From the NCBI RefSeq assembly GCF_900205865.1, contig NZ_LT906662.1, positions 1,623,411-1,687,410 on the forward strand: DNA of 64,000 nucleotides. Direction: 5' to 3'. The notes under the pieces are model-generated. The model worked only from the letters and a program-made list of their open reading frames with translations, was not told the origin of the DNA and did not search any database. The DNA is from Thermoanaerobacterium sp. RBIITD. Lineage in GTDB: Bacteria > Bacillota > Thermoanaerobacteria > Thermoanaerobacterales > Thermoanaerobacteraceae. A program made the position numbers and the translations under genes. Shown here piece by piece: positions 8,141-61,173 of the stretch; position 1 is the stretch's first letter; each line of letters starts with the position of its first letter.

Positions 8141-8186
8141 TATATAATAAAATATTGTCCTATAATATGGAATAGGAGGTGCTATC

Positions 8187-36689: not shown

Positions 36690-36732
36690 CTGACTTATAA
36701 TATTACTTGAGTAAAAATTTAATAGACTATGT

Positions 36733-36852
36733 CCGCTGGGGGAGCTTTAAGCTGAGATGGCAAATGCCGAACCCCTCGAACCTGATTAGGCTAATACCTA
36801 CGAAGGGAATGCGGTTATGAACCGCATATTTCATATGCGGTTTTTTGTTTTT
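36733..36852 (+). ncRNA. TPP (THI-box) riboswitch with intrinsic terminator expression platform
   Basis: CTGGGGGAGC...GCTGAGA...AACCCCTCGAACCTGATTAGGCTAATACCTACGAAGGGAA matches the TPP aptamer consensus. The terminator AACCGCATATTTCATATGCGGTTTTTT follows. Confidence 0.8.
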
Positions 36853-45500: not shown

Positions 45501-45777
45501 CGGCACAGGTCTTAATTTAACAGGAGCAGATACGGTAATACATTTTGACCCATGGTGGAATCCTGCCGTTGAAGACCAGGCAACAGATAGAGCGCATAGG
45601 ATAGGCCAAATAAATACAGTACAAGTAATAAAACTTATTACACAAGGTACTATTGAAGAAAAAATTATAAAATTGCAGGAGAAAAAGAAAGAGATAATAA
45701 ATTCGGTTATAAATCCAGGAGAAACATTTATAACTAGATTGAGTGAAGAAGAAGTAAAAGAGCTTTTTGCTATGTAA
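42574..45777 (+). CDS. SNF2-family helicase with N-terminal SWIM zinc finger
   Basis: SWIM zinc finger (CTCPAKMKYKGDCKHIVAVL). SNF2 motifs LADDMGLGKT, ILDEAQYIKN and LTGTPIEN, plus a helicase C-terminal motif (HFDPWWNPAVEDQATDRAHRIGQ). Confidence 0.85.
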   Translation: MFDISESEIKKRCFDTFTYKRGLEYYVSGRIHDLSLNKDGTAFQAIVTGTKEYYVRVQQYNGELFTSCTCPAKMKYKGDCKHIVAVLTYIKNHRDDIIDFLESGISNELFEAFEEREYIPESVKQPVNIEITLECGLTSLPAISLRMGIDKLYVVKSIKKFFEDTDNGEVVEFGKNFSFDPRINTFKDEDKKFIQFLREIYEIDKFNTEGSYYRIDPILTGKYVRLTPSNLEKFFEIVKDGHFNVSIGDKTYYDVKVVDGDLPIKFKLEKGNNGKGINVNVEGIENLSALSEKGNFFMYDGVIYKISSRQRYSLVPFYNLYVNNRVNKITFKEKDKFRFASTILPEIDKAGSVVIDENIKSSFYKEPLVTKIYLDKEYEKVTADINFTYGIYNINLYNPDKTNITKDCILIRDEAGEKSVLEIFERAEFKIKDNRVYIDNEEAIYNFIVNLLPALQKRAEVYYSESFKAIKLYKRSYSGRIRLRDDNLLEFSFSIDDIDQDLIPKIFDSIRRKKKFFRLPDGSFLPIEDDDLRDIVNLADELDLNDKDLKKNIINIPKYKALYLDERLKKDKVQIERDLKFRELVKNIKEPQETTYEIPKELRGTLRNYQVVGFKWLKTLASYGLGGILADDMGLGKTIQTIAFLLSEREKYKEPAIVICPTTLVYNWESEINKFAPSLKTTVISGNKSERNYLRKNIKESDIVITSYPLIRRDIDDYDNIKFSYCILDEAQYIKNPNSQNAESVKRIKAKGYFALTGTPIENSLTELWSIFDFLMPGYLLSHRKFVEKYEKPIIKENNKEKLVDLNRHIKPFVLRRLKKDVLKELPQKIETTSVAELTKEQKELYMAYLENAKGEIAEEIRNKGFERSQIKIISALTRLRQICCHPSMFIENYKGDSGKMELLMELLNELKDGGHRVLLFSQFTTALKLIEEKLKKEKISYLYLDGQTKSEDRGALVKAFNEGKANVFLISLKAGGTGLNLTGADTVIHFDPWWNPAVEDQATDRAHRIGQINTVQVIKLITQGTIEEKIIKLQEKKKEIINSVINPGETFITRLSEEEVKELFAM

Positions 45778-45875: not shown

Positions 45876-45892
45876 TAAAAAATTTCTCTGCT

Positions 45893-46157
45893 GATTATGT
45901 TACAAGTTTGTAATAAAAAATTAAGGAATTGTTAATAAATTTTATAAATTTTAATTTTATAATAAAAGGTAAGATATGGGAGGCAAGAATATAAAATGAA
46001 GCATAATATGCGGAAGTGATAAAAATTATTTTTATATTGCGGAATATTTTTAGAATAATTTAGCTTTTATATATATAGAAGGGGAAACAAAAGACGGAGG
46101 TGAAGAAAAAGATTATTCAATGTTCCCAAAAACATATGAGGGAGGGAGATATCTTTT
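45893..46157 (+). repeat. leader module copy A (part 1 joined to part 2; sigma cassette absent; uORF start degenerate)
   Basis: Shares TTATGTTACAAGTTTGTAATAAAAAATTAAGGAAT...GGGAGGCAAGAATATAAAATGAAGCATAATATGCGGAAGTGATAAAAAT...GGAATATTTTTAGAATAATTTAGCTTTTATATA with the other copies. Confidence 0.7.
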
Positions 46158-46838
46158 ATGAAATATCAAAAAAAATTAACAGCAGTATTACTTATAACCA
46201 TATTTTTACTGAGTGTAGTGATTACGGGCTTTACTTCAATATCGAAAGCAAGCACAAAAGAATCACTTGGTGTGAGTGATGCAACAAATTTTGATGATCC
46301 TATTACAGTAATTTCAGGCATGGTTCAGGCGATTAATGAACAGGATCCTTATGAGTATATGACCTATTTTACCAATTCTAATCGCACAGCTATGACACAG
46401 TTTCTTTCAAGTAATAAATCAGAGTCATTCTTTAAAGAGAAGCAAGCAAAGTTGATTCAAATTAAGGAGCTCCCAAAGGACATAGATATAGAAGCAGCAG
46501 GCATATCATCTGGAGAAAACTTAAATTTGGATGATACACGTATTTATTATGCTGAAATTAACTTTAAAGTGGATAAAGAAGATAAATGGCTATATAATGG
46601 TACAAACTATCGTGTTATTGTTGTTACAAAAGAAGATGGAAACTGGAAAATAGTCAGGCTATCAGTTCCATCTATAGAATACTTAAAAGATACTGGCAAT
46701 GGATTTAATTCAAAGGATGAAAATATTGCTGTTAAAATTGAAAGTACTCTTGAGAGAAAAGGACAAGTAATGAATATGAAGGGTGCAGTTATTGATAATA
46801 TTGCTGCAACAGAAGAACAGTTAAAAAATGAAAAATAG
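46158..46838 (+). CDS. lipoprotein; truncated paralog of 58729..59997
   Basis: Signal peptide/lipobox-like N-terminus. It is about 85% identical to the first 225 aa of the 58729 gene and is followed after the stop by a remnant of that gene's C-terminal domain at 46846-46925. Confidence 0.5.
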   Translation: MKYQKKLTAVLLITIFLLSVVITGFTSISKASTKESLGVSDATNFDDPITVISGMVQAINEQDPYEYMTYFTNSNRTAMTQFLSSNKSESFFKEKQAKLIQIKELPKDIDIEAAGISSGENLNLDDTRIYYAEINFKVDKEDKWLYNGTNYRVIVVTKEDGNWKIVRLSVPSIEYLKDTGNGFNSKDENIAVKIESTLERKGQVMNMKGAVIDNIAATEEQLKNEK

Positions 46839-47193
46839 TCCTAGCAAAAACAGCAGTTCAAGCTGGAGCTATAGCTGTAAAAATGTATGGCTGGTACCAT
46901 GTGAATCATCCAAAATGGAACTTTCGTATAATTAGGGGATTATTTGAATGGTATCTGTTGTAAAAATATCAGAAGTAGTAGCCTCTTACAGTTAATATTC
47001 CTAAATTATTATGACATTTCTAAAATGTAAAAAGATAACATTTAATAAAAAATTTATTATTATATAAATTTTAACAGTTATTACATAAATAAAAAAGAAG
47101 GTGATATATTAAAAACCTACTTTAAATTACATGATATTTTATTTAAATTGGAGGAAAAGGAAAATAATTAATTCAAATAAGGAGAGATCTGAA

Positions 47194-47427
47194 ATGAAAA
47201 GAATTTTAGTTACTATTATAATGTGCACTATTTTGGTTTTTTCATCAACTGTTGGCTTTGCAAATGTTGGTGATAATAAACTGAATAGTGTTTCTGCAAT
47301 TGTGAATAAAAATGATGCGAAAAAGATTGCAGCAAATCATGTCATTAGAGAAAAGCATAATGCTGAATTTAAAGACTGGATTAATGGCGAAGTAGACGAT
47401 GGAACAGAATTAGTCGATTTTAAATAA
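47194..47427 (+). CDS. small exported PepSY-like protein fragment (probably part of a disrupted gene)
   Basis: Signal peptide (MKRILVTIIMCTILVFSSTVGFA) and a PepSY-like segment. The reading continues in another frame to about 47570. Confidence 0.3.
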   Translation: MKRILVTIIMCTILVFSSTVGFANVGDNKLNSVSAIVNKNDAKKIAANHVIREKHNAEFKDWINGEVDDGTELVDFK

Positions 47428-47813
47428 TAATGTTATTGCTTATCTTTTTAATGTATATGACAAGACTGCATTATTAGGCTATATTATAGTAAGTGCTAAT
47501 AAAAATATGCCGCCTATTTTAGAATATTCCCGAGCTAGTTCTATAGTATTGGCTTATCCAAGATAAAACAAAATCTTCAAAGAAATGAAACACTTAAAAA
47601 AGCGACTTATGTATATTTTTTCCCTAATACATATATGATAAAATTTATTATAAATAGAAACAATTATGATCAAGAGGAAGAATTATTTGATATTAGAAAT
47701 TATAAAAAAATTATTTATAAAGACATAAATCAAAGTACAATAAATTCCTCAGATATTAACTCTTAGATGTTAATAATGTAAAAACATGGAACAAATTATT
47801 TGATTTTAATCCA

Positions 47814-48341
47814 ATGAATAGTGGAACAATAACTACGAAGAAAATAAGTGGTGTTCCAGATTTGACTTGGTATAAAGGCTGTGCTCCTACATCAGCAGCT
47901 AACTTGATTTATTATTGGGATGCTCATGGATATCCTAACCTTGTTATTAATGAAACTACTAATCAAGTAATAGAAAAATTGGCAATGAATATGGGAACAG
48001 ATAGTAATGGTTCTACTAATGTTTTATTTATTATGTCTGGTACTATTCAATATATAAAATCAAAAGGATATACAAATTTTGATGGTTATGATTTAAATCC
48101 TCCTAGCTATTATGATATAAGGAATGAAATAAATAATTCAAGACCCCTATTATTATCGGTAATAGGACATCCAACTTATGAAAATCATACAATGGCATGT
48201 GTTGGATATGAATACGTAACAGAACTTGGAGAAATAACAGAAGAATATGTAATAGTACATGATACATGGAGTGAAACTCCTACAGATGTGTATATTGCAT
48301 TTGATGGGACTTTCAAATATGCACATATATTTATTCCATAA
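47814..48341 (+). CDS. C39-like papain-fold peptidase domain protein (possibly the 3' part of a disrupted gene)
   Basis: Catalytic-type Cys (WYKGCAPTSAANLIYYW) and His (VIVHDTW). No signal peptide is present on this ORF. Confidence 0.45.
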   Translation: MNSGTITTKKISGVPDLTWYKGCAPTSAANLIYYWDAHGYPNLVINETTNQVIEKLAMNMGTDSNGSTNVLFIMSGTIQYIKSKGYTNFDGYDLNPPSYYDIRNEINNSRPLLLSVIGHPTYENHTMACVGYEYVTELGEITEEYVIVHDTWSETPTDVYIAFDGTFKYAHIFIP

Positions 48342-48354
48342 AAAGGTGATATTT

Positions 48355-48690
48355 ATGATATCAAAAAAATGGATAATGACCATGCTACTTATTTTGGCTC
48401 TCACAGGATGTTCAAATCTAAAAAAACAAGGAGATGTGGTAGGTGGAATATCTGATAATGAAGCTTTGAAGGTAGCTAAAGAAAAAGCGGAAATTACTAA
48501 AGTAAAATCAGAAGAGCTTAAAAATTTAGAAGTTGATCTCGACAAATTTTTTGATGATCCAAAACTTATGGAAAAATCTCCTTGCCCCGTTTACTGGATA
48601 ATAAAAGGTGTTGATAAAGAAGGGAAATCCTTAACTGTATATGTAAATTATAAAAAACCCAGCATTTATTATATTAAAAATGAAAGATAG
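48355..48690 (+). CDS. small lipoprotein
   Basis: Lipobox LILALTGCSN and an RBS (AAAGGTGA). It is about 95% identical to the product of 58106..58441. Confidence 0.55.
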   Translation: MISKKWIMTMLLILALTGCSNLKKQGDVVGGISDNEALKVAKEKAEITKVKSEELKNLEVDLDKFFDDPKLMEKSPCPVYWIIKGVDKEGKSLTVYVNYKKPSIYYIKNER

Positions 48691-48707
48691 TCTAATTGTT
48701 GAATTTG

Positions 48708-48733
48708 TCATGGCATTTGCCATGCTTTTTTTA
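48708..48733 (+). terminator. rho-independent terminator
   Basis: CATGGCATTTGCCATG followed by TTTTTTT; the same element occurs at 58458-58483. Confidence 0.6.
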
Positions 48734-48826
48734 TGTTACAAGATTGTAATAGAAAATTAAGGAATAATTAATAAAATTTATAATTTTTAATTTTATAATA
48801 GAGGTGAGGTATGGGAGGTTAAGAGT
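48731..48826 (+). repeat. leader module copy B, part 1
   Basis: TTATGTTACAAGATTGTAATAGAAAATTAAGGAATAATTAATAAAATTTATAATTTTTAATTTTATAATAGAGGTGAGGTATGGGAGGTTAAGAG, immediately before the ATG of 48827. Confidence 0.7.
48737..48750. promoter_or_regulatory. palindrome TTACAAGATTGTAA, putative operator
   Basis: Also present at 45899-45912 (as TTACAAGTTTGTAA), 52951-52964 and 58487-58500. Confidence 0.4.
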
Positions 48827-49228
48827 ATGGGAGAGAGCGATGTAGAATTTGCATTTATTAAGTTTATTGAAAAATCTATTAATTATGAAGCAGTAAAAGC
48901 CATAAAAAAATATAATGACATTAAAAAGAAAGAACTTTTAACATTAGAGTTACCAGATTACAATGGCAATATTGAAAATGATGGGAAAATTATTGACAGT
49001 ACGGTATACGATAATGTGTTAATTGAAAATGAAATAATAGATAGATTAATGATTTCAAAATGCAAGGAACTGTTGGAAGCGGAAGAATTTAATGTTGTAA
49101 TGCTAAATATAATGCAAGATATACCACAAAAAGAGGTAGCTAAAATGTTAAATAAATCACAATCATCCATAAGCAAGATTAAGAAAAAAGCCCTTAAGAA
49201 AATAAGAAAGTTTATGGAGGGTTCTTGA
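48827..49228 (+). CDS. ECF-type sigma-70 C-terminal fragment (regions 2.3/2.4 to 4.2)
   Basis: EFAFIKFIEKSINYEAVKAIKKYNDIKKKEL aligns to region 2.3-2.4 (compare SigW FSTWLYRIATNLTIDRIRKKK). The C-terminal VVMLNIMQDIPQKEVAKMLNKSQSSISKIKKKALKKIRK is a region 4.2 HTH. Confidence 0.6.
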   Translation: MGESDVEFAFIKFIEKSINYEAVKAIKKYNDIKKKELLTLELPDYNGNIENDGKIIDSTVYDNVLIENEIIDRLMISKCKELLEAEEFNVVMLNIMQDIPQKEVAKMLNKSQSSISKIKKKALKKIRKFMEGS

Positions 49229-49232
49229 AAGT

Positions 49233-49433
49233 ATGTGTAAAAATAAAAGCCTTTTTGAAATTATTTTAAAGGCTAAAGAAGGTGATAAAGATGCTATGCA
49301 AGAGATAATATTGCGATTTCAGCCTCTTATAAAGAAAAACATGAGAAATGTTGATATGGACATAAAAGATGATATAAGTCAGGATATTGTTGAGGTAATA
49401 ATAAAAGCAATCAAAAAATTTGATATAAAATGA
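49233..49433 (+). CDS. ECF-type sigma-70 N-terminal fragment (regions 2.1-2.2 only)
   Basis: LKAKEGDKDAMQEIILRFQPLI...DDISQDIVEVIIKAIKKFDIK aligns to the SigW-type regions 2.1-2.2 (QVKKGDQDAFADIV...AEDIAQEAFIRAYVNIDSFDIN). It has its own RBS (GGAGGG, 10 nt), and its start lies 4 nt after the previous stop. Confidence 0.6.
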   Translation: MCKNKSLFEIILKAKEGDKDAMQEIILRFQPLIKKNMRNVDMDIKDDISQDIVEVIIKAIKKFDIK

Positions 49434-49589
49434 AGCATAACATTCGGAGATGATAAAAATAATTTTTATGATGTGGAATATTTTTAGAAAAAGTTAGCTT
49501 TTATATAAGTAGAAGGAGAAATACGGAAAATGGAGGTGAAAAAAGATTATGAAATATTCCCCTTAAATATGAGGGAGGATTGGATTTAA
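49434..49589 (+). repeat. leader module copy B, part 2
   Basis: CATAACATTCGGAGATGATAAAAATAATTTTTATGATGTGGAATATTTTTAGAAAAAGTTAGCTTTTATATAAGTAGAAGGAGAAATACGGAAAATGGAGGTGAAAAAAGATTATGAAATATTCCCC... Confidence 0.7.
49530..49589 (+). CDS. conserved leader uORF (MEVKKDYEIFPLNMREDWI); its stop abuts the ATG of 49590
   Basis: An RBS (AAGGAGAAA) lies upstream. Equivalent uORFs occur at 54934..54978 and 58670..58732. Confidence 0.35.
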   Translation: MEVKKDYEIFPLNMREDWI

Positions 49590-50327
49590 ATGAAAAGGTT
49601 AGTATCGCTCATTTTATGCTTATCTTTAGCTTTATCTGTGACAATCGCTTATGCAGATCTTTCTACTAATGAACAATCAATAGGTGAAGTATCAGCTGAG
49701 TCAAAAAAACTTTCTGATCAAAAAATAGTTGAAACGGCAAAGCGGTTAGAAGTGTTAAACAAAAAAGTTTCTAATGGACAAGTAAATCCTATGAGTGATC
49801 CACAAATACCACCAAGCAAAATATTAAGTACTTCCGGATATATTGCACAACCTGATAATAGTACATGTGGACCTACTTCTGCTCATAATCTGCTCTTAAG
49901 CTGGGGTAAAAATATATCTATAGATACACTGAAGAAAGATTTGGGATATAATGGTCAAACTCCTTTTGGAGATGCATGGAAAACGACGCTTAATAATTAT
50001 ACAAATTCAACTTATTATGTAGTTACTTGGAGCCCTAGTCAGACAACAATTTGGAATGCTTTCGTTGGGGACACAATTGATGGACACCCATTTATATTAG
50101 ATACACATATGTCGTCTGAAAATGGTTATCTTGAAGGTTATTCTGGATCAACATGGTGGCATTATGTAACAGGAATTGGATATAGTGGCTATAATTTAAA
50201 TTCAGACAATAGTAAATATGGAATATACTTTGATCCGTATGATGGACGTGTGGGTACTTTTGGCCAGCATTCTTTGGAACTGCCCAAATGGGTAAAATTA
50301 GTATCAGAAAGAGGAATAGTTTGGTGA
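49590..50327 (+). CDS. exported C39-like papain-fold cysteine peptidase
   Basis: Signal peptide (LILCLSLALSVTIAYA), a catalytic-type Cys (DNSTCGPTSAHNLL) and a His (WWHYVTGIGY). Confidence 0.6.
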   Translation: MKRLVSLILCLSLALSVTIAYADLSTNEQSIGEVSAESKKLSDQKIVETAKRLEVLNKKVSNGQVNPMSDPQIPPSKILSTSGYIAQPDNSTCGPTSAHNLLLSWGKNISIDTLKKDLGYNGQTPFGDAWKTTLNNYTNSTYYVVTWSPSQTTIWNAFVGDTIDGHPFILDTHMSSENGYLEGYSGSTWWHYVTGIGYSGYNLNSDNSKYGIYFDPYDGRVGTFGQHSLELPKWVKLVSERGIVW

Positions 50328-50408
50328 TTTCATGGTATTCCTTAAGTGTTTTACTTAAGGAATACCATAATCTATATAGATAAAAGTCACTTTGTCTGGG
50401 AGGCTATT

Positions 50409-51488
50409 ATGAATAAAGTGAAACTATGTTTATTAATCATCGTAATCTTAATAATTGGTGGCTGTAGTATTAATAGTACAAGTACAGACTTAAGCAATGA
50501 GAATATAATTATTGATAAAACAAATGGTAATATACTTGATGAGTTAGAAGCTAAAAAAACCTCATCGATTGAAAATGCACATCCAATAGCTGTGCTTGAT
50601 GATGGCAGAAAAGTGTTTTTGCAGGTTAATCCTGAAGTAGACAACAGTATTTTTGTCACTTCAATCGATGGCTCAATAGTGCTTAAAATTAATGCTGAAA
50701 TTTCTAAAAATATTTATGATGCAAAAGTCATGGGGAATTGGATCGTGTATGTTGAATCCAGCAACGATATGACAAAAAGCGATTGGGCTTTGTATGCCAA
50801 AAATATAGATGACAATCGTCGCATAGAAATTGATAAGGGAAATGTTGTAAATGCAAAAGTAAAAACGCCTACTTTGTTAGGAGCGTTGATATCTGCATCT
50901 AACGACAAAATTGTTTGGACAGCTTTTGAAAAAGATGAGAAATCTGTTAATGCAATTGTCAAATTATACGATATTGAAAACAATACTTATAAAATCGTTG
51001 ATAAATTAAATGTTGAAGACGGAGAATTTGGGCAGCCAGGGTTGGATGGGGATTGGCTTGTATATGATATTGGAAAAATCGATATGAAAGCACTGGCGAG
51101 AAATGGGAAATTGGTCCTTGTAAATCTTAAGAATAACGAGAAAAGAATATTAGATGAAGGATTAAGAGTTAGCGGTGCATCAATTAAATATCCATATGTA
51201 GTATGGAATTCAGGCGATTCTATTCTAAAATTATACAATATAAAGACAAAAGAAGAAAAAACTATTGTAAATTGGGGTATGACAGGCGTTTGGAATAGCT
51301 CACTTAATGATAAGTTTATTTCATGGAATACAAACGGTGATGGTTTATACATTTACTCTATAGAAAGAGGAGAGATATTGAAGTTAAAAGATTCAGGTAT
51401 TACAAGCGGTGGTAATATTTCAGGCAATATACTGTGGTGGTACGTCAAAGGAGAAAAGTGCAAATCAGAGTGGATTACTTTAGATTGA
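50409..51488 (+). CDS. lipoprotein with beta-propeller-like repeats
   Basis: Lipobox IIGGCSI, with repeated W/Y-rich strands (WIVYVES, KIVWTAF, WLVYDIG, YVVWNSGD). An RBS (GGGAGG) lies before MNKVKL. Confidence 0.5.
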   Translation: MNKVKLCLLIIVILIIGGCSINSTSTDLSNENIIIDKTNGNILDELEAKKTSSIENAHPIAVLDDGRKVFLQVNPEVDNSIFVTSIDGSIVLKINAEISKNIYDAKVMGNWIVYVESSNDMTKSDWALYAKNIDDNRRIEIDKGNVVNAKVKTPTLLGALISASNDKIVWTAFEKDEKSVNAIVKLYDIENNTYKIVDKLNVEDGEFGQPGLDGDWLVYDIGKIDMKALARNGKLVLVNLKNNEKRILDEGLRVSGASIKYPYVVWNSGDSILKLYNIKTKEEKTIVNWGMTGVWNSSLNDKFISWNTNGDGLYIYSIERGEILKLKDSGITSGGNISGNILWWYVKGEKCKSEWITLD

Positions 51489-51501
51489 ATGAAATTACTG
51501 A

Positions 51502-51912
51502 ATGCTTTTTAATCATATTGGAGTGAGATTTATGATAAAAATTACTAGTACATGTAAATATATACCTTATAAAATTATGTTTGCGCTTTTTATAATTGTA
51601 ATGCTATTGTCACATCTATCAAATATAGCATCAGCAAATGAAAGTTTTGTTATTTTAGACATCAGCAAAGGAAGTATTGTCATAACTTCTACAGGTTATT
51701 CACAAAATAGCAGCAAAGAAATTCCATATACTATACGAGAATACAGTGGACTTCCGGAGTAGGACACGCTATGGTTATTAAAGGTTATGATACCAGCACG
51801 AATTATGTTATTTATAACGATCCTTGGGATGGATACGGGCATGGCGCAACTTACTCATATTATGTAAGTAACAGTAGCTGGTACTGGACAGATTCTCTAT
51901 TTTGGGAATAGT
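51502..51912 (+). pseudogene. C39-like peptidase remnant (frameshifted)
   Basis: An 86-aa ORF with a signal-like N-terminus is followed, in a different frame, by GHAMVIKGYDTSTNYVIYNDPWDGYGHGATYSYY. This is the conserved C-terminal His region of C39-like peptidases. Confidence 0.4.
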
Positions 51913-51934
51913 ATGAATGAGGAGGTGAATTATT

Positions 51935-52798
51935 TTGAAAAAGGTTCTTACTTTTGTTGTGATTGCTATATTGATATTAATATCAACTTTTCCGGCTTTT
52001 GCAGCTACTCCAATAAATACTCTGGTTCAACAACAATTAGATCTAGCTAAAGAAAAAGATCAGGTAGAACGTGCAATTAGCGATAGCCAGTCAAATCCTA
52101 AAAAATTTTTATTCGATAACAAACATGAGCTGGGACGTAAAGAGTTAATGGATGTAAGTAATCCTGACGATTTAATATACGGGAAAGCATATAAAGTGTA
52201 TATTGCTAATAAAGAAGTTATTCAAGATCTAATAGAAGGGAAAAATATTTCTAATGTTCTGTTAAATGCACCTTATGAGTGGGAAGTGCCTGTAAAATTT
52301 AATAATAAAAGTGTAGCGTCAATTACCGTATCTTTTTTGGACAATAGATGGAATGTTGGTGAAATTGGCGGCTATCTTTCGCCTAATTCTATTGATTTTG
52401 TAAGCAATCCTGATGATATAACTTCATATCTTGATAACAATAATTTAAAAGAAGCAAAAACATTTATTCATTTCAGAATACCTTCGTTGCATTCCGATTT
52501 TCTTTATATTGAAGCAAATAGTGGAGAATATTTTATCCCTGTTATTCACGGCGAAGGTAAAAGTGAGCTTTATGGTCTTAAAGACAAAAAAATATATACA
52601 AAAGACGAGATAATTTCCGCTGTTGGTCATACTCTTAAAGCTGGTTTGAAAGATACGGGAATGACAACAGGCCGCCCGTCGGTTAATGGGAAATATCTTG
52701 GCAATCAAGTATACTATTTAATTGTATTGACAATTTTTATTGCCTTTATAACAATTTTTCACTTTATTAGATTGAAACGAAAATACAGTTATAAGTAA
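51935..52798 (+). CDS. exported protein with C-terminal membrane anchor (hypothetical)
   Basis: Signal peptide (VIAILILISTFPAFAATP) and a C-terminal TM helix followed by a basic tail (LKRKYSYK). It has a TTG start with an RBS (GAGGAGGTG). Confidence 0.5.
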   Translation: MKKVLTFVVIAILILISTFPAFAATPINTLVQQQLDLAKEKDQVERAISDSQSNPKKFLFDNKHELGRKELMDVSNPDDLIYGKAYKVYIANKEVIQDLIEGKNISNVLLNAPYEWEVPVKFNNKSVASITVSFLDNRWNVGEIGGYLSPNSIDFVSNPDDITSYLDNNNLKEAKTFIHFRIPSLHSDFLYIEANSGEYFIPVIHGEGKSELYGLKDKKIYTKDEIISAVGHTLKAGLKDTGMTTGRPSVNGKYLGNQVYYLIVLTIFIAFITIFHFIRLKRKYSYK

Positions 52799-52944
52799 AT
52801 AAGCGAATCTAAGGTGGAATATTAAAATTCTATGTTAGACACCCATCAAAAATAGTTGGTGTCTTTTATTTTTTATTTTGCATAGGCAATCAGGATGTAA
52901 GTGTTTATCTGATAAGTTAAGGGACCAATAAAATTTTTCTGCCA

Positions 52945-53000
52945 ATTATGTTACAAGATTGTAATAAAAAATTAAGGAATAATTAATAAAATTTATGATT
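52945..53000 (+). repeat. leader module copy C, part 1, interrupted by an IS
   Basis: ATTATGTTACAAGATTGTAATAAAAAATTAAGGAATAATTAATAAAATTTATGATT, then the IS begins. Confidence 0.65.
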
Positions 53001-54782
53001 TGATTCAAGTGTCATAAGAAGCATTTTTTTAAGCTGCTAATGATAACTTTGCTTGATTTTTACCTGATTTTGTAAGAATAAATTTGATTTTGATATTTTT
53101 ATACAAAGTTGCAGCCATCTCCGCTGCCATTTTCAGTATTTTTTTTGCATTTATGGCTCCTATTTTGAATGAAAACCAGATTTTTGAGCGCACTAATCCC
53201 CTTACAGGTATCACATCTACATAATATTTGCGCCTTAGTATTGATGGAATACCCTCCACTCCATTTCTTATCTTTTGAAGTACACTGTATTCTTCTGTTG
53301 ACATCTTTTTCAAATAGCTTGCTCTTTGTATTGTTTTTGCTGTTATCAGTACATATGCCGATTTCTTTTGTAGCTTCGCTCCACATTTTTCTCTTAGTGG
53401 ACAATGTTCACATGTTTTTTTATTGAAGGATGCTCTATATAATCCTGTTTTTTCATAGTATCTTGTTTTGTATGGTTTTTCTCCTCTTGGGCATTTGATT
53501 ATTTCATGGGTCGTTTCATCTAATTCAAATTCGCTTTGTATTTCATCTGGCAATTTCCCTATAAGAGCTGTTGTTATTAGTTCGATATTGTTTTTATCTG
53601 CAAGTTCTATGTTTTCAATGCTGCTGTAAGCTCCATCTGCTATTATTGTTATTTCTTTTTCTTGTTTCCCTAGCTTTTCTATTGTTTCTTTGCAAAAGCT
53701 GCTATCGCTGTGTGTGTTTACATCATAGTCATAGCTGGTTATTATGGAGCCTTTTTCGTCTATTGTTTCTACTATGTTAGCTACATAGCCTTTATGGTCT
53801 TTTCCTGCTTTTTTGCGATATGTTGCATCTGGGTCGCTTGGGTTTTGAAGACTATCAGGGCTTATTTTTTCTTTTTCTACTGGTACTATCTTGCCTTCTT
53901 CTGTTATTTCTGTTTGTTCTTTTAGTACACGCTGTAATAGCTGATATTCTGGTAATTCAGCGTATGCTTCTCCTAATTCTTTTATTAGTGTATAGGCATC
54001 TTCAATTATTTCTTGAAGTCTTTTTGTTATTTCTTCGTTTTTTCTATGATAGATTGTTTTGTTTCTGTCGTCTTCATCTAGGTAGTGTTCCATGTTTTTG
54101 AGGTGTTGATATTCTCCTGTTTTGTATACTGCCTTGACCATATTTGCTACGCATGTGTATAGTATTTCTAATCTGGACATTTTTTTGCAACTGGATGATA
54201 CCATAATGCTGTCCATTCTTTTTACTGATGGATTTATATTAAAGTATTTTACAAATACGTTTGCCATGGCTTCCATTTCTTCATGAAGAAGGTCTCTTCC
54301 TGTTTCTAGATTGTAAAGATATAGCCTTTCACGAAAACGGCTAAAAGTCCTATCACTGAAAGGTTGACTTTTGAAGCTTGTAGTGTGAAGGGCGTATTGG
54401 AAACGGACATCACATAGGATGCTTGCTAATAGTTCGTCATCTGTGAGATTAAACATTTCTTTTAGTATTAGGGCTCCAATTATTGCGTTTACAGGACTGT
54501 TTGGACGAGAAGCGGGATTGTCACTGTACAATACGGAAAAGCGTTTCTCATTGATTGCTGGAAATATGATTTCAGCAAAGCCTTTTGCCCATGAATTTAA
54601 AACAAACGTTTTTGTTCTTTCATCCAAGTTTAAGAATCTATCATCAATTGTGATTTGTTGATATTCGTTTGGTTTGAATGCCATGGCTATGTATCGCTCC
54701 TTCTATTTCCTTTTGTTTGTATTTCTATTTTACCATATTTTTAGTTTATCATGAAGGAAAAATACTTTTGACACCTTAATCA
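53001..54782 (-). mobile_element. IS1182-family (IS5/IS1182) insertion sequence, about 1.78 kb, with imperfect terminal inverted repeats of about 25 bp and a TGATT direct-repeat flank
   Basis: Left end TGATTCAAGTGTCATAAGAAGCATTTTT and the reverse complement of the right end, TGATTAAGGTGTCAAAAGTATTTTT. TGATT is present at 52996-53000 and at 54783-54787. Confidence 0.7.
53029..54684 (-). CDS. IS1182-family transposase
   Basis: 551 aa with the N-terminal conserved region NPASRPNSPVNAIIGALILKEMFNLTDDEL. A DDE region and a C-terminal Cys-rich segment (CPRGEK...CEHCPLREKC) follow. Confidence 0.85.
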   Translation of the reverse strand: MAFKPNEYQQITIDDRFLNLDERTKTFVLNSWAKGFAEIIFPAINEKRFSVLYSDNPASRPNSPVNAIIGALILKEMFNLTDDELLASILCDVRFQYALHTTSFKSQPFSDRTFSRFRERLYLYNLETGRDLLHEEMEAMANVFVKYFNINPSVKRMDSIMVSSSCKKMSRLEILYTCVANMVKAVYKTGEYQHLKNMEHYLDEDDRNKTIYHRKNEEITKRLQEIIEDAYTLIKELGEAYAELPEYQLLQRVLKEQTEITEEGKIVPVEKEKISPDSLQNPSDPDATYRKKAGKDHKGYVANIVETIDEKGSIITSYDYDVNTHSDSSFCKETIEKLGKQEKEITIIADGAYSSIENIELADKNNIELITTALIGKLPDEIQSEFELDETTHEIIKCPRGEKPYKTRYYEKTGLYRASFNKKTCEHCPLREKCGAKLQKKSAYVLITAKTIQRASYLKKMSTEEYSVLQKIRNGVEGIPSILRRKYYVDVIPVRGLVRSKIWFSFKIGAINAKKILKMAAEMAATLYKNIKIKFILTKSGKNQAKLSLAA

Positions 54783-54995
54783 TGATTTTTAATTTTATAA
54801 TATTAGGTGAGGCAGGTATGTATAAAGTATAAAATGAAGCATAACATTCGTAAATGATAAAAATAATTTTTATGATGTGGAATATTTTTAGAAAAAATTA
54901 GCTTTTATATAAGTAGAAGGGGAAATACGGAAAATGGAGGTGAGGAAAGAGATTATGAAATATTCCCCTAAAATATGAGAGAGGGAAATAAGATT
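54783..54995 (+). repeat. leader module copy C, part 2 (resumes after the IS)
   Basis: ATGATTTTTAATTTTATAATATTAGGTGAGGCAGGTATGTATAAAGTATAAAATGAAGCATAACATTCGTAAATGATAAAAAT... The uORF MEVRKEIMKYSPKI lies at 54934..54978. Confidence 0.65.
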
Positions 54996-56096
54996 ATGAA
55001 AAAGATTTTCTCAATTTTTATTTTAATGATACTCTTTATATGTGGGGCAGTTATTAATGTAAATGCATACACAAATAACGAAAATATGAACAGTAAAGAA
55101 ATCACTAATATAATTACAGAAGCATATCAATATAGGACAAAATCAATAGTTGATCCGTCTTATATAGATAAATTGGAGTTGTTTTATGCAAAATATACAA
55201 AAATTTATAATTTCGAAAAGAATAGATATAAAAATTATATTGAGATGGCAGATAGACTGAATATAAAAATATTAAACATTAAATCCAATGTAGAAATTAG
55301 TAATATTAAGTTAAAAAACAATGATGAATGTCAAGTTGATTTAAAAGAGATTATAAGTTTTGACTGGATAAATTCAAATGATGATCCAATTAATTCTAAG
55401 ACTAACAAATCTGATATGGGTATTGATCATAAAGTTACATTAATTAAGAAAGATAATGAATGGAAAATACAAAAAGATGAATATACTGAAGGATATTTAA
55501 CAAATGTTACTTCTCCGGATTTTGATGTTTCACAATTAAAATCACTGAGTGTACCTGAAATAACGCATGATAATGTAGTTCCATATTCACCACCAGGATC
55601 AACTCCTTATAATAGAAATGCAGCTGCTAACTATGCAGAAAATTATTGTTTGAAATATAATCCTAGTTATAAAAGCTATGATTCAGTTGGTGGTGACTGT
55701 GCAAATTTTGTTTCTCAGTGCTTATATGCTGGTGGGGCCTATTATATTGGATTTGGGATTAATAGTAGTACAAACTGGTGGTATGATAATAAAAATACTT
55801 CTTTAACTACAGATGATGTTGCATCTACTACATGGACATATTGTCCTTCTCAAAGACCTTTTATACTATCAGGGTGGGGTAGTGAAACAACTTCATCAAG
55901 TTTATCAAGAGGAGACATTATATATTATGATTGGGCTGGAGATGGTATATGGGATCACGTTGCTATAGTAACAGGCTTTGATAGTTCTGGCGCTCCCCTT
56001 GTTAGCTGTCATACTACCGATTATCACAATATAAAATGGAATTATGGTGGAAGTTCTTGCAAATATAGTTGCATACACATTAATAATTATATTTAA
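54996..56096 (+). CDS. exported Amidase_6-like putative cell-wall hydrolase
   Basis: Signal peptide (IFILMILFICGAVINVNA). The C-terminal domain has Cys (GGDCANFVSQCLYAGG) and His (GIWDHVAIVTGFD) residues typical of the putative-amidase (PF12671-like) family. Confidence 0.55.
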   Translation: MKKIFSIFILMILFICGAVINVNAYTNNENMNSKEITNIITEAYQYRTKSIVDPSYIDKLELFYAKYTKIYNFEKNRYKNYIEMADRLNIKILNIKSNVEISNIKLKNNDECQVDLKEIISFDWINSNDDPINSKTNKSDMGIDHKVTLIKKDNEWKIQKDEYTEGYLTNVTSPDFDVSQLKSLSVPEITHDNVVPYSPPGSTPYNRNAAANYAENYCLKYNPSYKSYDSVGGDCANFVSQCLYAGGAYYIGFGINSSTNWWYDNKNTSLTTDDVASTTWTYCPSQRPFILSGWGSETTSSSLSRGDIIYYDWAGDGIWDHVAIVTGFDSSGAPLVSCHTTDYHNIKWNYGGSSCKYSCIHINNYI

Positions 56097-56200
56097 TATG
56101 TTAATGTGTTGCATTGATTTTAACCCTTATAAATATAAGGCAATTTTTATGTACTCTTATATTTAAAATTGAATTCAAATTGTAAATTTATATCTGATTT

Positions 56201-56245
56201 CTGCATACTCTAAATAACATAGTAAAGAGTATGCAGTGTTTTTTA
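56201..56245 (+). terminator. rho-independent terminator
   Basis: CTGCATACTCT...AGAGTATGCAG followed by TGTTTTTT. Confidence 0.6.
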
Positions 56246-56272
56246 AACAATTTTCAATGGAGGTGATCGGTA

Positions 56273-56833
56273 GTGGTATTATTTAAAAAAATTGTTTTGT
56301 GTTTTTTGATATTTTTTGCCTTTATTGTGGTCGGATGTTCGGTTCCAAATAACAACATTGCCATTAAAGAAAAGGGAAATAATTCAATAGCACAGAAGTA
56401 TTTCAATATGCTGACGAAGGAAGATATAATTAGAATTTCAAAGGCGTCTCCGGAAGAAATAATAAACATCTATTATAATAGCATAAATGATAAAAATTAT
56501 AATCTCGCCGTTGTTTGTGCTTCCAATTTTTTAAATAATGCAGCAAATAAATCATCTGAAGATATTAGTTATGTGTATAATGAACATATAGAGTATTTGA
56601 AAAATATAAAAAGTATTGATATCAAATCAATAGAAATATATCCAGATACGATAAAAAAGAATGACAGCGAAAATATAGAAAAACCTTCTAAGCTTTACTG
56701 TGTTTATTATATGCAAAAATCGAATGATATTAACAAATTTCCTGAAGAGGGGTACTTCACCAGATTTATTGCAGTTTCTAAGTCACCTTTATATGGTGGT
56801 TGGTGTATAAGTTATATTGCTTCATCACCATAA
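56273..56833 (+). CDS. lipoprotein (hypothetical)
   Basis: Lipobox FIVVGCSV with a GTG start after an RBS (GGAGGTGA). Confidence 0.5.
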   Translation: MVLFKKIVLCFLIFFAFIVVGCSVPNNNIAIKEKGNNSIAQKYFNMLTKEDIIRISKASPEEIINIYYNSINDKNYNLAVVCASNFLNNAANKSSEDISYVYNEHIEYLKNIKSIDIKSIEIYPDTIKKNDSENIEKPSKLYCVYYMQKSNDINKFPEEGYFTRFIAVSKSPLYGGWCISYIASSP

Positions 56834-56872
56834 ATTTTTTTTAAGAAAAGCTATATAGGGGAGGTAGATAAT

Positions 56873-57979
56873 GTGATTAAATCGTTTAAAACTTTATTAG
56901 CTGTTGTATTTTTATTACTTATGTCTGTTGTATTCTCTGGCTGTTCTGACACAGTGAAAAATAATACTGAAGTGCCATTTGTTGTCTTAAATAATGATGA
57001 TGGAAACTTTAAGGCAGATATATATTACTGGAATATAAAAACTAATAAAATAAAAGAAACAAATGAAAATTTATATAAGATTCCACAAAATATAATAACA
57101 AATAAAGAATTATATACGATATTCCCTATGGCTTGGGATGAACAGAATCATGCAGTTTTGCCTTCTTATTTAGAAGTATCAGATAAATTCAAAAACTTTG
57201 TTAAAAAAGCGGATTTTTATTTTCAACCAAAGACGATATGGGGGCAAGACGTAAAGTTGGTAAAAAGCGATGAAGAAAATAGATATAAGTTAACATTAAT
57301 AGATGGCGGTAAGACTGAGGAGAAAGAAATAACAATTCCTCTTCATACTTTTAAAGGTGAAGATGGTAAAGGGTATGAAGCAACAAAATGCGGAACAGTA
57401 ACATCGGTAGTTAAGACAAGTTATGGTGCAGCAATGCTCTATCCTTGCTTCACATTAGGTGGCGGAAAATTATTCATTGTAAAGTATGATAACGCATCAG
57501 AAAGTATCAAATGGCAAGAAGTTGGACCTATTAAAGGTATAGAGTTATCACCTAGCTTTCCGCCATTGGCTAATCATACAGCTACTATCGGAGATAATTT
57601 TATCATAAGAACGCAGACTAATCCTATAGAAGTGTATACCGAAAAAGTAGGTTATAAGATTATAAATAACATATATGATCTTCGGAAGAAATACGCACCT
57701 GAAACATTAAATAGTGAATTTCCTGAATATATAGATATTTTAGGAAGCTATAATGATATTTTGTTTTTAAGTATACCAGTGCATAAAAATGAAGGGACAG
57801 AATTGTATATATTTGCTGTGAAGGATGATAAACTTATAGGGATTATGCACAGAACGATAAATGATATTGAAATAATTGATGCGGCAGGAAATGTTGCATC
57901 AAAATATAATATGCCTAAAGCGAAAACTTTAATTGGCGAAAATGATGTCTATTTTCCAAATGTGAACGGCATGGATTGA
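56873..57979 (+). CDS. lipoprotein (hypothetical)
   Basis: Lipobox VVFSGCSD with an RBS (GGGGAGG). Confidence 0.5.
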   Translation: MIKSFKTLLAVVFLLLMSVVFSGCSDTVKNNTEVPFVVLNNDDGNFKADIYYWNIKTNKIKETNENLYKIPQNIITNKELYTIFPMAWDEQNHAVLPSYLEVSDKFKNFVKKADFYFQPKTIWGQDVKLVKSDEENRYKLTLIDGGKTEEKEITIPLHTFKGEDGKGYEATKCGTVTSVVKTSYGAAMLYPCFTLGGGKLFIVKYDNASESIKWQEVGPIKGIELSPSFPPLANHTATIGDNFIIRTQTNPIEVYTEKVGYKIINNIYDLRKKYAPETLNSEFPEYIDILGSYNDILFLSIPVHKNEGTELYIFAVKDDKLIGIMHRTINDIEIIDAAGNVASKYNMPKAKTLIGENDVYFPNVNGMD

Positions 57980-58105
57980 TTAATAGATTAAATGTTGAAG
58001 ACGGAGAATTCGGACAGCCAGGGTTGGATGGGGATTGGATTGTATATGATATTGGGAATACTTTCATATACACACATATATTTATTCCATAAAAAGGTGA
58101 TATTT

Positions 58106-58441
58106 ATGATATCAAAAAAATGGATAATGACAATGCTACTTATTTTGGCTCTCGCAGGATGTTCAAATCTAGAAAAACAAGGAGATGTGGTTGGTGGAAT
58201 ATCTGATAATGAAGCTTTGAAAGTGGCTAAAGAAAAAGCAAAAATTACTAAAGTAGAATCAAAAGAGCTTAAAAATTTAGAAGTTGATCTGGACAAATTT
58301 TTTGATGATCCAAAACTTATGGGAAAATCTCCTTGCCCCGTTTATTGGATAATAAAAGGTGTTGATAAAGAAGGGAAATCCTTAACTGTATATGTGAATT
58401 ATAAAAAATCCAGCATTTATTATGTTAAAAATGAAAGATAG
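58106..58441 (+). CDS. small lipoprotein, paralog of 48355..48690
   Basis: Lipobox LILALAGCSN. The whole 58020-58570 block duplicates 48290-48830. Confidence 0.55.
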   Translation: MISKKWIMTMLLILALAGCSNLEKQGDVVGGISDNEALKVAKEKAKITKVESKELKNLEVDLDKFFDDPKLMGKSPCPVYWIIKGVDKEGKSLTVYVNYKKSSIYYVKNER

Positions 58442-58457
58442 TCTAATTGTTGAATTT

Positions 58458-58483
58458 GTCATGGCATTTGCCATGCTTTTTTT
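58458..58483 (+). terminator. rho-independent terminator (duplicate of 48708-48733)
   Basis: CATGGCATTTGCCATG followed by TTTTTTT. Confidence 0.6.
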
Positions 58484-58728
58484 ATGTTACAAGATTGTAA
58501 TAGAAAATTAAGGAATAATTAATAAAATTTATAATTTTTAATTTTATAATAGAGGTGAGGTATGGGAGGTTAAGAGCATAATATGCAAAATGATAAAAAT
58601 AATTTTTATGATGTGGAATATTTTTAGAATAATTTAGCTTTTATATAAGTAGAAGGGGCAATACAGAAGATGGAGGTGAAAAAAGATTATGAAATATTCC
58701 CCAAAAATATTAAGGAGGGAGATCTTTT
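58484..58728 (+). repeat. leader module copy D (part 1 joined to part 2, no sigma cassette)
   Basis: Part 1 is identical to copy B up to GGGAGGTTAAGAG and is then joined directly to CATAATATGCAAAATGATAAAAAT... The uORF MEVKKDYEIFPKNIKEGDLL lies at 58670..58732 and overlaps the ATG of 58729. Confidence 0.7.
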
Positions 58729-59997
58729 ATGAAACATCTAATAAGATTAACAGCAGTACTGCTTATAACAACATTTTTAATAGGTATAGTGATTACAGGA
58801 TTTACTTCAATACCGAAAGCAAGCGCAAAAGAATCGGTTAGTCTGAGCAATATAACAAATTTTGATGACCCTATTGCAGTAATTAAAGGGATGATTCAAG
58901 CAATTAACGATCAGGATCCTTATGAGTATATGAACTATTTTACCGATTCTAATCGCACAGCCATGACACAATTTCTTTCAACTAATAAGTCAGAATCATT
59001 CTTTAAAGAGAAAGAGGCTAAGTTGATTCAAATTAAAGAGCTTCCAAAGGAAGTAGGTGTAGTAGCTGCAGGTATTTCATCTGGAGAAAACTTAAATTTG
59101 GATGATACACGTGTTTTTTATGCCGAAATTAACTTTAAAGTGGATAGAGAAGATAAATGGCTATATAATGGTACAAACCATCGTGTTATTGTTGTCACAA
59201 AAGAAGATGGAAGCTGGAAAATAGTAAGGCTATCAGTCCCATCTATAGAATACTTAAAAGATACTGGCAATGGATTTAATTCAGATGACGAAAATATTGC
59301 TGCTAAAATCGAAAGTACTCTTGATAAAAAAGGACAAATAATGAATATGAAAGGTGCGGTTATTGATAATATTGCTGCAAGTGAAAAACAGCTAAAAGAT
59401 GAGAAATTAAATCCTAGAGCTATTGAACCTGAAATAGGCATAGATAGCACAGCAGTTGATGAACATACGAGGCCTTCTAATATCAGGGTTTACATGACAA
59501 ACTCAGTAAATATAAATCATTATGGTTCCGGAACTCACCTTGTTGATTTTGGAGATTATGTGTATAATGTACTGCCAAATGAATGGGGCGACTGGTACAA
59601 TACGGCTAAAACAGCAGTTCAAGCAGGAGCTATAGCTGTAAAAATGTATGGTTGGTACCATGTGTATCATCCAAAATGGAATTTTAGCCCTTACTATGCT
59701 GACGTACAAGATAATATAAATGACCAAGTATATAAATACAATTCAGCGACAACTAATTTTAATAGTGCAGTTAATGATGTTGGAGGGATTGGTGTCGATA
59801 TACTCAGTGGATCGGCTTATGTTCTATTTGAAGTGCATTACGTAGCAGGAACTGAAGGACCAGGCGGGCAATATAGTGGTACGATGTGGCAATATGGAAC
59901 GTTATATTGGGCAAAACAAGGTAAAGGCTATACTTACATGTGCCATTATTATTGGGACAGATCGTCAACTCAGCCAATACATTTCTTTTACTATTAG
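58729..59997 (+). CDS. lipoprotein with C-terminal SpoIID/LytB-like domain (tentative)
   Basis: Lipobox/signal ITGFTSIPKASA. The C-terminal VLPNEWGDWYNTAKTAVQAGAIAVKMYGWY resembles the SpoIID ...ALKAQAVAARTYA region. Confidence 0.45.
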   Translation: MKHLIRLTAVLLITTFLIGIVITGFTSIPKASAKESVSLSNITNFDDPIAVIKGMIQAINDQDPYEYMNYFTDSNRTAMTQFLSTNKSESFFKEKEAKLIQIKELPKEVGVVAAGISSGENLNLDDTRVFYAEINFKVDREDKWLYNGTNHRVIVVTKEDGSWKIVRLSVPSIEYLKDTGNGFNSDDENIAAKIESTLDKKGQIMNMKGAVIDNIAASEKQLKDEKLNPRAIEPEIGIDSTAVDEHTRPSNIRVYMTNSVNINHYGSGTHLVDFGDYVYNVLPNEWGDWYNTAKTAVQAGAIAVKMYGWYHVYHPKWNFSPYYADVQDNINDQVYKYNSATTNFNSAVNDVGGIGVDILSGSAYVLFEVHYVAGTEGPGGQYSGTMWQYGTLYWAKQGKGYTYMCHYYWDRSSTQPIHFFYY

Positions 59998-60066
59998 AGA
60001 TTATTTAATTGAGTAGGAATAATTTATATTTTCCTACTCAATTTTAAAGTTTAGGAGGTATTGTCA

Positions 60067-61131
60067 ATGCGAATAAAAAAATTAACGATATTGGTTTTAT
60101 TTTTACTTTTACTTTTTTTATATGGATGCCGGTATCATATTTTTGATAAAAATCAAGTCAAAGTAATCAAATATTCTGTTCCGAATTTCGGATATTTCTG
60201 TCCGATTTTTTTTCAAGGGAAAGAGGTTGTAGCACAGCAAGGACAAGATACACCAAGGGATTTAACAAATATGACTTTGTATTCTAGTAAAGATTTTAAG
60301 AAATACAATAAAATAGCTTTATTTGAAGGTCATTTTGGACAATTTTATGTTTCACCGTATAATTCAAAAGAAATATTTTTTATGTCTACTGAAGGGAAAG
60401 AAGGCACAGAGCAAATTGTTTTCAAAAGCAACGATGGCGGAAAAAGTTGGGGGCAAGTTTATTATAATTCAGATGATAGTATGATGCTAGCTGATATGAC
60501 ATTTAGTCCTTCCAATAGAAACGAAATATTTTTAGTTAAAAATGATAAAGAACATGGCATTGAAATAATAGAAAGCCATGATTCAGGGATTCATTGGAGC
60601 AAAGCAAATTCTACAAAAGAGATTATTATGTCTACTCATCTTGTGATTGATCCTAATAATTCTAAGCATTTTTTAGTTTCTGCTTCAAATGGTCTTTGGG
60701 AGAGCATTGATGGAGGTGTTTCGTGGAAACAAATAACTACCTCAGAGTCTTTGACAGCTATTTTTGCTCTTTCCAAAAATGATAATGTGTACTTCACAAC
60801 TATGGAATCCATTAATGAAGGATGTATATATGAATTAAATAATGGAAAAATAAAAAAGATTAGCATCCCAAACATGGGAGAGTTAATTTACAACGTTGGA
60901 ATTGCTTATCAAAGCAGTACAGGAAAAGTTTATGTTATAGTAATACGGCAAAATGAAAGCAATTCTATGTATGATACTACTTTATATTACATTAAAAATG
61001 ATTCTTTTAACAAAGTAACTAATATTAAGAGTAAATATAGTACTCTTCCAAATCTGATTTTTGATGCTACAAACTCGAACGTTATATATTTTTACAGCTA
61101 TAAAAATATATACAAAGTTGTCTTATCTTGA
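60067..61131 (+). CDS. lipoprotein with BNR/Asp-box repeats (Ycf48/sialidase-like beta-propeller)
   Basis: Lipobox LFLYGCRY, with BNR-like motifs SNDGGKSW, SHDSGIHW and SIDGGVSW. An RBS (GGAGGT) lies 8 nt before the ATG. Confidence 0.55.
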   Translation: MRIKKLTILVLFLLLLFLYGCRYHIFDKNQVKVIKYSVPNFGYFCPIFFQGKEVVAQQGQDTPRDLTNMTLYSSKDFKKYNKIALFEGHFGQFYVSPYNSKEIFFMSTEGKEGTEQIVFKSNDGGKSWGQVYYNSDDSMMLADMTFSPSNRNEIFLVKNDKEHGIEIIESHDSGIHWSKANSTKEIIMSTHLVIDPNNSKHFLVSASNGLWESIDGGVSWKQITTSESLTAIFALSKNDNVYFTTMESINEGCIYELNNGKIKKISIPNMGELIYNVGIAYQSSTGKVYVIVIRQNESNSMYDTTLYYIKNDSFNKVTNIKSKYSTLPNLIFDATNSNVIYFYSYKNIYKVVLS

Positions 61132-61173
61132 TCCGGATTAAGAAGGCTGAATTTATTTCAGTCTTTTTTACTG

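Follow-up and report, generated by a model that had tools for sequence, protein, structure and literature searches.

A probable deletion scar of two genes within a variable island of Thermoanaerobacterium sp. RBIITD

The variable island and its leaders

The analysed stretch of the Thermoanaerobacterium sp. RBIITD genome (64,000 nt of contig NZ_LT906662.1; referred to below as the window) contains a variable island (45879-61152), which is flanked by an SNF2 helicase gene (42574-45777) on one side and by a liaF-like gene and argC on the other. The island is divided into four operon blocks, and every block starts with a copy of one common promoter/leader (about 250 nt): P1 (45879-46144), P2 (48715-48826 and 49434-49578), P3 (52930-53001 and 54782-54982) and P4 (58466-58718). 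The island, the 368-aa lipoprotein gene, the propeller lipoprotein gene, the C39-like pseudogene and the elements of the junction and of the repeat described below are read on the + strand.

Block P1 comprises a truncated DUF4829 gene, a C39-like peptidase pseudogene and copy 1 of a small lipoprotein gene. In block P2, genes encoding Sigma70_r4 and HTH_16 proteins are placed between the two halves of the leader and are followed, downstream, by a Peptidase_C39_2 gene, a beta-propeller lipoprotein gene, gene fragments and a 287-aa gene. Block P3 contains an Amidase_6/CHAP gene, a 186-aa gene, a 368-aa lipoprotein gene, the scar that is the main subject of this study and copy 2 of the small lipoprotein gene. 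Block P4 carries a DUF4829/SpoIID-like gene and a BNR propeller gene.

The leader includes a perfect palindrome (TTACAAGATTGTAA), a TATAAT sequence, two strong RBS-like sites and, in most of the copies, a short upstream ORF (MKYSP...). Depending on the genome, genes are attached at either of the two RBS-like sites. The palindrome occurs four times in the window (at 58487-58500 in P4), always within the island, against 0.15 occurrences expected by chance, and part 1 of the P4 leader contains TATAAT at 58545-58550 and the RBS-like sequence GAGGTGAGG. Among viral contigs the palindrome gave one match, but a blastn comparison of the whole window with that locus found no similarity, so this match is a chance occurrence in unrelated sequence. 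Even with permissive thresholds, the leader matched no Rfam family; a single Rfam match in the window reached the gathering level, an unrelated TPP riboswitch (36728-36826, 76 bits), located upstream of the gene 36890-37528. A scan with the sigma-70 consensus was uninformative in this AT-rich DNA, as it returned 96 sites versus 96.8 expected.

The genes of the Sigma70_r4 protein (133 aa, 48827-49228, E 1.7e-8) and the HTH_16 protein (66 aa, 49233-49433, E 2.4e-15) lie exactly between part 1 and part 2 of the P2 leader. In leaders P1 and P3 the final bases of the HTH_16 gene (ATAAAATGAAGCATAA) are still present, as though a deletion had removed the pair. The P3 promoter spacer is occupied, upstream of its TATAAT, by an IS1182-family element (53002-54781) with a transposase gene (53029-54684, - strand), terminal inverted repeats (GATTMARGTGTCA) and a 7-bp target duplication (ATGATTT). 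In the complete chromosome of T. thermosaccharolyticum (CP116033, designated L009), a group II intron (6998-8404) is situated about 130 nt upstream of the point equivalent to the position of this IS.

A second scar lies in block P1. There, the first copy of the DUF4829/SpoIID-like gene (46158-46924) is 86% identical to the full gene (58729-59685), but lacks the equivalent of 59418-59604 (187 nt); its stop codon is found at 46836-46838, and it is followed by a retained 81-nt piece (46844-46924, 94% identical to 59605-59685), beyond which the homology is lost. The truncated form is also present in three other assemblies (L001, L009 and L017). The sequence following the propeller gene (51489-51935) is a graveyard of gene pieces, and relatives (L009 5199-5434; L017 8255-8868) retain there fragments of SLH-domain and Peptidase_C39_2 genes which have been lost from the window.

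Anatomy of the junction at 57980-58092

The 368-aa lipoprotein gene (56873-57979), whose product was not assigned to any Pfam family, is represented by orthologues of 91-97% identity in L004, L008, L009, L015 and L017. Its stop codon (57977-57979) immediately precedes the scar. The first component of the scar is a 79-nt internal fragment of the propeller lipoprotein gene (57980-58058), now non-coding, which matches 50998-51076 at 92.4% identity (E = 3e-26 in a search within the window), i.e. codons about 197-223 of a 359-aa protein. The intact gene that contains this source site, and represents the parent family of the fragment, lies in block P2 (50409-51488). The second component is the 33-nt tail of a C39-like/Inhibitor_I69 peptidase gene including its TAA codon (58060-58092), which differs from 48309-48341 by three mismatches. 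The two pieces are fused in frame (NRLNVEDGEFGQPGLDGDWIVYDIGNTFIYTHIFIP, followed by the stop codon), which could be a coincidence with a chance of 1 in 3, and the resulting remnant of 36 codons has no start codon in its own frame. An earlier sequence-only reading of this DNA had described the first piece as 57990-58056 (about 90% identical to 51003-51069) and the second as the last 30 nt of the C39-like gene; both pieces were recovered in our alignments, over somewhat longer intervals.

The designation of the first parent as a beta-propeller lipoprotein, taken from the same reading, is supported by an AF2 model (pLDDT 78.4, pTM 0.78), for which Foldseek returned propellers of the WD40, Kelch, TolB and BamB types with E-values down to 1e-10; the predicted propeller family is confined to Thermoanaerobacterium. 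An intact propeller gene is located directly 3' of the 368-aa gene in L009, L015 and L017, the upstream 368-aa copy of L009 being broken. The other parent is represented in the window by the C39-like pseudogene (47194-48341), which carries three frameshifts (+1 near 47422, -4 near 47542 and +2 near 47760) relative to the intact gene of T. thermosulfurigenes. Intact 382-aa genes encoding Inhibitor_I69 and Peptidase_C39_2 domains were found in T. thermosulfurigenes (L002, 104-1252) and in strain CMT5567-10 (L017, 13809-14957), and in both of them the gene ends with ...FKYAHIFIP and a stop codon directly 5' of the small lipoprotein gene. As the intact gene of T. thermosulfurigenes has this very ending, the 33-nt tail is a genuine gene 3' end. 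A pair consisting of a C39-like pseudogene and a small lipoprotein gene, of 85% identity, is also present at a different chromosomal place in OZ194616.1 (L011, 8945-10411), beside an IS and a VapBC pair and without a leader.

The microhomology at the left junction amounts to 4-10 nt, from ATTG, if the ancestral 3' flank of the 368-aa gene resembled that of L015, to ATTGATAGAT, if it resembled that of L004, which may itself derive from the scar. At the right junction there are at most 4 nt of microhomology (GGGA), and 1-2 nt are explained by neither parent. Considering the shortness of the microhomology on both sides, the scar was therefore made by illegitimate joining.

The scar is followed by copy 2 of the small lipoprotein gene (58106-58441), an intact ORF encoding 111 aa with the lipobox LAGC and preceded by the RBS AAGGTG (58094-58099). 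The AF2 model of its product, built from only 9 close sequences (pLDDT 72.7), has one helix packed on a four-stranded sheet. The best Foldseek match was YpmB/TseB (2gu3; E 0.02, rmsd 2.0 A, 79 columns), and further ones included YpeB and a vibriolysin propeptide, the top matches spanning E-values of 0.02-0.8; the Pfam match to TseB was weak and under the cut-off. These best, though weak, matches would be those of a PepSY-like fold.

Within the genus, the small lipoprotein gene stands behind at least five different upstream junctions, namely (i) the C39-like gene, (ii) the scar, (iii) in L015, a 90-nt fragment with its joint at ATTCCATA, (iv) in L004, an intact propeller gene that is followed by about 35 nt of its own 3' flank and has its joint at the RBS/start (GTGATATTTATGATA) and (v) in L003, an SLH-type gene. 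The small lipoprotein gene is intact in all cases in which the sequence covers its full length (in two T. butyriciformans contigs, L003 and L004, the sequence stops after 28 codons), and in every junction type its ATG (58106 in the window) is preceded by the conserved RBS AAGGTG.

We considered whether the fragment and the tail might have been kept for a function, i.e. as a 5' extension of the lipoprotein ORF, as a small peptide or as a regulatory RNA. A 149-aa run-on ORF (57992-58441) is indeed open in the window and in L008, in which a gene caller listed it as P0004, and the scar is 95-98% conserved between genomes. This conservation, however, is no higher than that of the surrounding block, the old propeller frame is stopped in L009 and L010, and the lipoprotein gene is kept without the scar piece in other genomes. 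Moreover, RNA folding of the scar was no better than that of shuffled sequences (z = +1.0). The run-on ORF was rejected as a true product, since there is no RBS before its ATG (57992) and an extension of 38 residues would bury the signal peptide of the lipoprotein. Retention for a function is thus very improbable; no function of the scar was detected, and, as far as can be judged from the sequence, it appears to be functionless.

No terminator was found between the 368-aa gene and copy 2 of the lipoprotein gene, which, from this arrangement, should be co-transcribed with the amidase operon. In this genome the IS interrupts the promoter of this operon. Copy 1 (48355-48690, 111 aa) stands behind two pseudogenes.

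The repeated module and the age of the scar

The segment 48309-48828 (the end of the C39-like pseudogene, lipoprotein copy 1, a terminator and part 1 of the P2 promoter/leader) is repeated 9.75 kb away in the same island as 58060-58579, where it comprises the C39-like tail, the RBS, lipoprotein copy 2, the terminator and leader part 1. The two copies can be aligned without gaps over 520 nt with 96.2% identity (blastn, E = 0). The intrinsic terminator following lipoprotein copy 2 (58460-58483) is identical to 48709-48732, or, in a narrower delimitation, 58460-58475 to 48709-48724, and beyond it lies part 1 of the P4 promoter/leader (58484-58579), shared with 48733-48828; the right edge of the repeat (48828/58579) coincides exactly with the end of this leader part. 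A gapped alignment of 48285-48828 with 58038-58579 gave 94.7% identity. The sequence-only reading had proposed a repeat of about 95% identity between 48290-48830 and 58020-58570. Its coordinates agree with ours to within about 40 nt, the left edge having been set about 20-40 nt too far to the left: 58020-58059 belongs to the propeller fragment and is not homologous to 48290-48308, and the true edge is 48309/58060. In pairwise alignments the intervals concerned were 92.4-96.2% identical, compared with the lower limit of about 70% which that reading had set for its claim. To judge by these alignments, none of the matches (the repeat, the propeller fragment and the C39-like tail) can be attributed to chance.

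The copies differ at 20 positions across the whole 520 nt, 16 of them within the lipoprotein coding sequence. Nineteen of these differences fall within the first 365 nt and the twentieth lies by the right edge (position 518), which leaves a difference-free run of 152 nt covering the end of the coding sequence, the terminator and promoter part 1 (P of about 0.02 in simulation). This run suggests either local gene conversion or promoter constraint, and its non-coding part could be explained by the constraint rather than by conversion. The dN/dS ratio between the two lipoprotein genes of the window equals 0.24 (pairwise range 0.05-0.33).

The scar junction, with identical breakpoints, was also found in the complete T. 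thermosaccharolyticum chromosome (L009), in a JGI contig (L010) and in a Logan assembly (L008). In all three the stop codon of the 368-aa gene is followed first by the propeller piece of 79 nt, then by the tail of 33 nt and finally by the lipoprotein gene, and the identity to the window over the 126-nt scar amounts to 97.6% for L008 and 95.2% for both L009 and L010. The latter two have acquired an in-frame TAG in the old propeller frame of the fragment. The shared breakpoints, together with the TAG common to L009 and L010, indicate a single origin of the scar followed by its decay. Several further look-ups were made: a 37-nt junction pattern gave nothing in metagenome contigs, neither the two small lipoprotein copies nor the sigma protein P0015 matched any contig in exact-sequence look-ups, and the argC look-up returned only short Logan contigs (1.4-2.4 kb) that stop short of the island.

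The same observations bear on the suspicion that the join is an artefact, i.e. a collapse or chimera between repeated island segments that is absent from the cell. The region is full of repeats of 80-97% identity, and two contigs of T. butyriciformans (L003 and L004) terminate within the small lipoprotein gene, so such repeats do disturb short-read assemblies. Nevertheless, the occurrence of the same junction in three other assemblies, with identical breakpoints and with substitutions of their own, excludes an assembly chimera for the junction itself, and the context of copy 1 was seen independently in L001, L002 and L017. The two-copy arrangement of the window rests on one assembly, the context of each copy being confirmed separately elsewhere. 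Overall, there is only the slightest chance that the junction is an assembly error.

A recent in-situ segmental duplication, with the chimeric junction formed at the point of insertion, is another explanation. It would agree with the 96% identity of the copies, with the identity of their last 152 nt and with their location within one island. Against it, the scar with the same breakpoints is present in genomes that have one lipoprotein copy (L009 and, within the examined part of the contig, L008). Furthermore, the copies are not each other's closest relatives, since copy 1 differs from the scar-type copy of L009 by 10 nt and from copy 2 by 16 nt; the substitutions in the tail (CA versus TG) follow the junction type across genomes and not the genome; and the dS between the copies (0.13) lies inside the between-genome range (0.05-0.30). 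We therefore regard a recent duplication as unlikely, and the term segmental duplication, used in the sequence-only reading, should not be taken to describe an event in this genome.

Only one of the two module types is found in L009 and L015, for which the whole island is available, and in L017. As the types occur singly in other genomes, the window unites two older module lineages, one linked to the C39-like gene and the other to the scar. By all these comparisons the scar is old, and inherited or transferred, and is not the trace of a fresh local duplication. The claim that the junction is a recombination scar reflecting the shuffling of island genes thus gains support from the alternative arrangements in other genomes, with the reservation that the scar is shared and old, not recent.

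Exchange of island blocks and comparison with known systems

Based on these observations, we consider it quite likely that 57980-58092 is a non-functional deletion scar of two genes, which was formed once and has since been inherited or transferred among Thermoanaerobacterium in a shuffled block. The order of events that we infer starts with a precursor operon containing the 368-aa gene, the propeller gene, possibly further sequence, the C39-like gene and the small lipoprotein gene. One deletion would have joined codon about 223 of the propeller gene, in frame, to the final 10 codons of the C39-like gene, and another would have removed the first ~590 nt of the propeller gene, both joins being illegitimate, with little or no microhomology. 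As in relatives the propeller gene directly follows the 368-aa gene and the C39-like gene directly precedes the lipoprotein gene, two deletions are the simplest path; none of the genomes compared contains the complete precursor operon, so this path is a reconstruction. The small lipoprotein gene would have kept its own RBS and become the last gene of the amidase/lipoprotein operon. All this may have happened in a single ancestor or donor, from which the scar block would have been inherited by, or transferred among, Thermoanaerobacterium species. The apparent duplication in the window would then reflect the presence, in one island, of two old module versions, C39-linked and scar-linked, with their 3' parts partly homogenised, in operon blocks reshuffled by homologous recombination between the common leaders of about 250 nt.

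The site between SNF2 and liaF/argC holds differently arranged blocks in L009, L015 and L017, and in L017 the block order is permuted and a second propeller copy is present. Island segments are 92-98% identical between genomes, whereas the identity of the SNF2 and arg genes on either side is 71-82% (window versus L009, L015 and L017). Likewise, the dS of island genes is 0.08-0.24, that of the liaF-like gene 0.32 and that of argC 0.65-1.0, and SNF2 is saturated. Since the dS of the island is far below that of its flanks, the blocks, including the scar, appear to be much younger than their host species, and this low divergence points to exchange between species. The liaF-like gene is intermediate (91-93%), as if the exchanged tract sometimes reached into it. 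The breakpoints of the scar are unique, which makes it usable as a marker, and their presence in several species with far more diverged core genes argues that island blocks move between species as units.

The rearrangement of blocks likely involves homologous recombination between leaders combined with illegitimate joining. Homologous and illegitimate recombination, offered as alternatives in the sequence-only reading, may thus both apply: the scar is an illegitimate joint, and the homologous pathway is likely for the movement of whole blocks. Natural transformation probably helps this exchange; Thermoanaerobacterium is naturally competent according to PMC4518999, which cites Shaw et al. 2010. 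In transformable bacteria, homology-facilitated illegitimate recombination joins DNA at 3-10 bp beside a homologous anchor (PMC6382021). By analogy, such a process would fit both the block swaps at the leaders and the microhomology joints.

It is possible, although doubtful, that the ~250-nt leader plays a double role, being at the same time the promoter of a split-sigma regulon (of secreted cell-wall-active proteins and lipoproteins) and a portable homology through which blocks are swapped, permuted and imported via natural transformation. The island would then be a recombinase-free cassette system at a fixed site, and the scar a by-product of imprecise homology-facilitated illegitimate events.

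The scar itself is a case of ordinary genome plasticity and not a new kind of element; the architecture of the island and the contrast between the divergence of the island and the core genome are of more interest. The products of the island include secreted peptidases specific to the genus, an amidase, a SpoIID-like protein, propeller and PepSY-like lipoproteins and a possible two-subunit sigma factor, and the island may interest those who work on these thermophiles as production strains. Its repeated leaders make the locus unstable and difficult to assemble.

Among known structures, the scar recalls gene remnants and deletion scars left by illegitimate recombination, which are internal gene fragments devoid of a start codon, with joints of 0-10 nt microhomology. 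Similarly to deletion scars in variable islands, it decays by point mutation (the TAG of L009 and L010) and adjoins pseudogenes and mobile elements, i.e. the IS1182-family element (53002-54781) here and a group II intron in a relative. Unlike the usual deletion scars, it is carried in a block which several species share and which is far less diverged than the surrounding core genome.

The island as a whole resembles integron cassette arrays in that blocks of genes are gathered at one site, each bounded by the same conserved non-coding element with an inverted repeat, and in that content and order vary between strains. However, the repeated element is a promoter/leader located 5' of multi-gene operons and is not attC, and the joints have no single crossover point in common, as they fall on RBS 1, RBS 2 or the start codon, or within genes. 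Scans of the island ORFs with Pfam and NCBIfam found no site-specific recombinase, the only mobility gene being the IS1182-family transposase in P3. An integron-like array was rejected because of the lack of an integrase or other site-specific recombinase in the island and the variability of the joints.

The Sigma70_r4/HTH_16 pair resembles Orf7/Orf8 of Tn916 or a split sigma factor of the SigO-RsoA type, and possibly constitutes a two-subunit sigma factor. Orf7 and Orf8 sit behind the promoter that they activate (PMC10028694; PMC5812530), and the pair of the island is likewise placed behind one copy of the shared promoter. On the other hand, in comparison with RsoA, the HTH_16 match reaches 24.7 bits against a curated cut-off of 100 (the protein also weakly matches region 2 of several sigma factors), and in L009 the leaders are present in an island without the pair. 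This likeness concerns the regulation of the island and not the scar, and the promoter specificity of the pair is putative.

Finally, the joints are comparable with the products of homology-facilitated illegitimate recombination as outlined in PMC6382021, in which a novel joint combines a long shared segment, here the lipoprotein-terminator-promoter module or the leader, with a microhomology of 3-10 bp. The difference is that in our case the process would be deduced from the joints, and that replication slippage or end joining within one genome could give the same joints.
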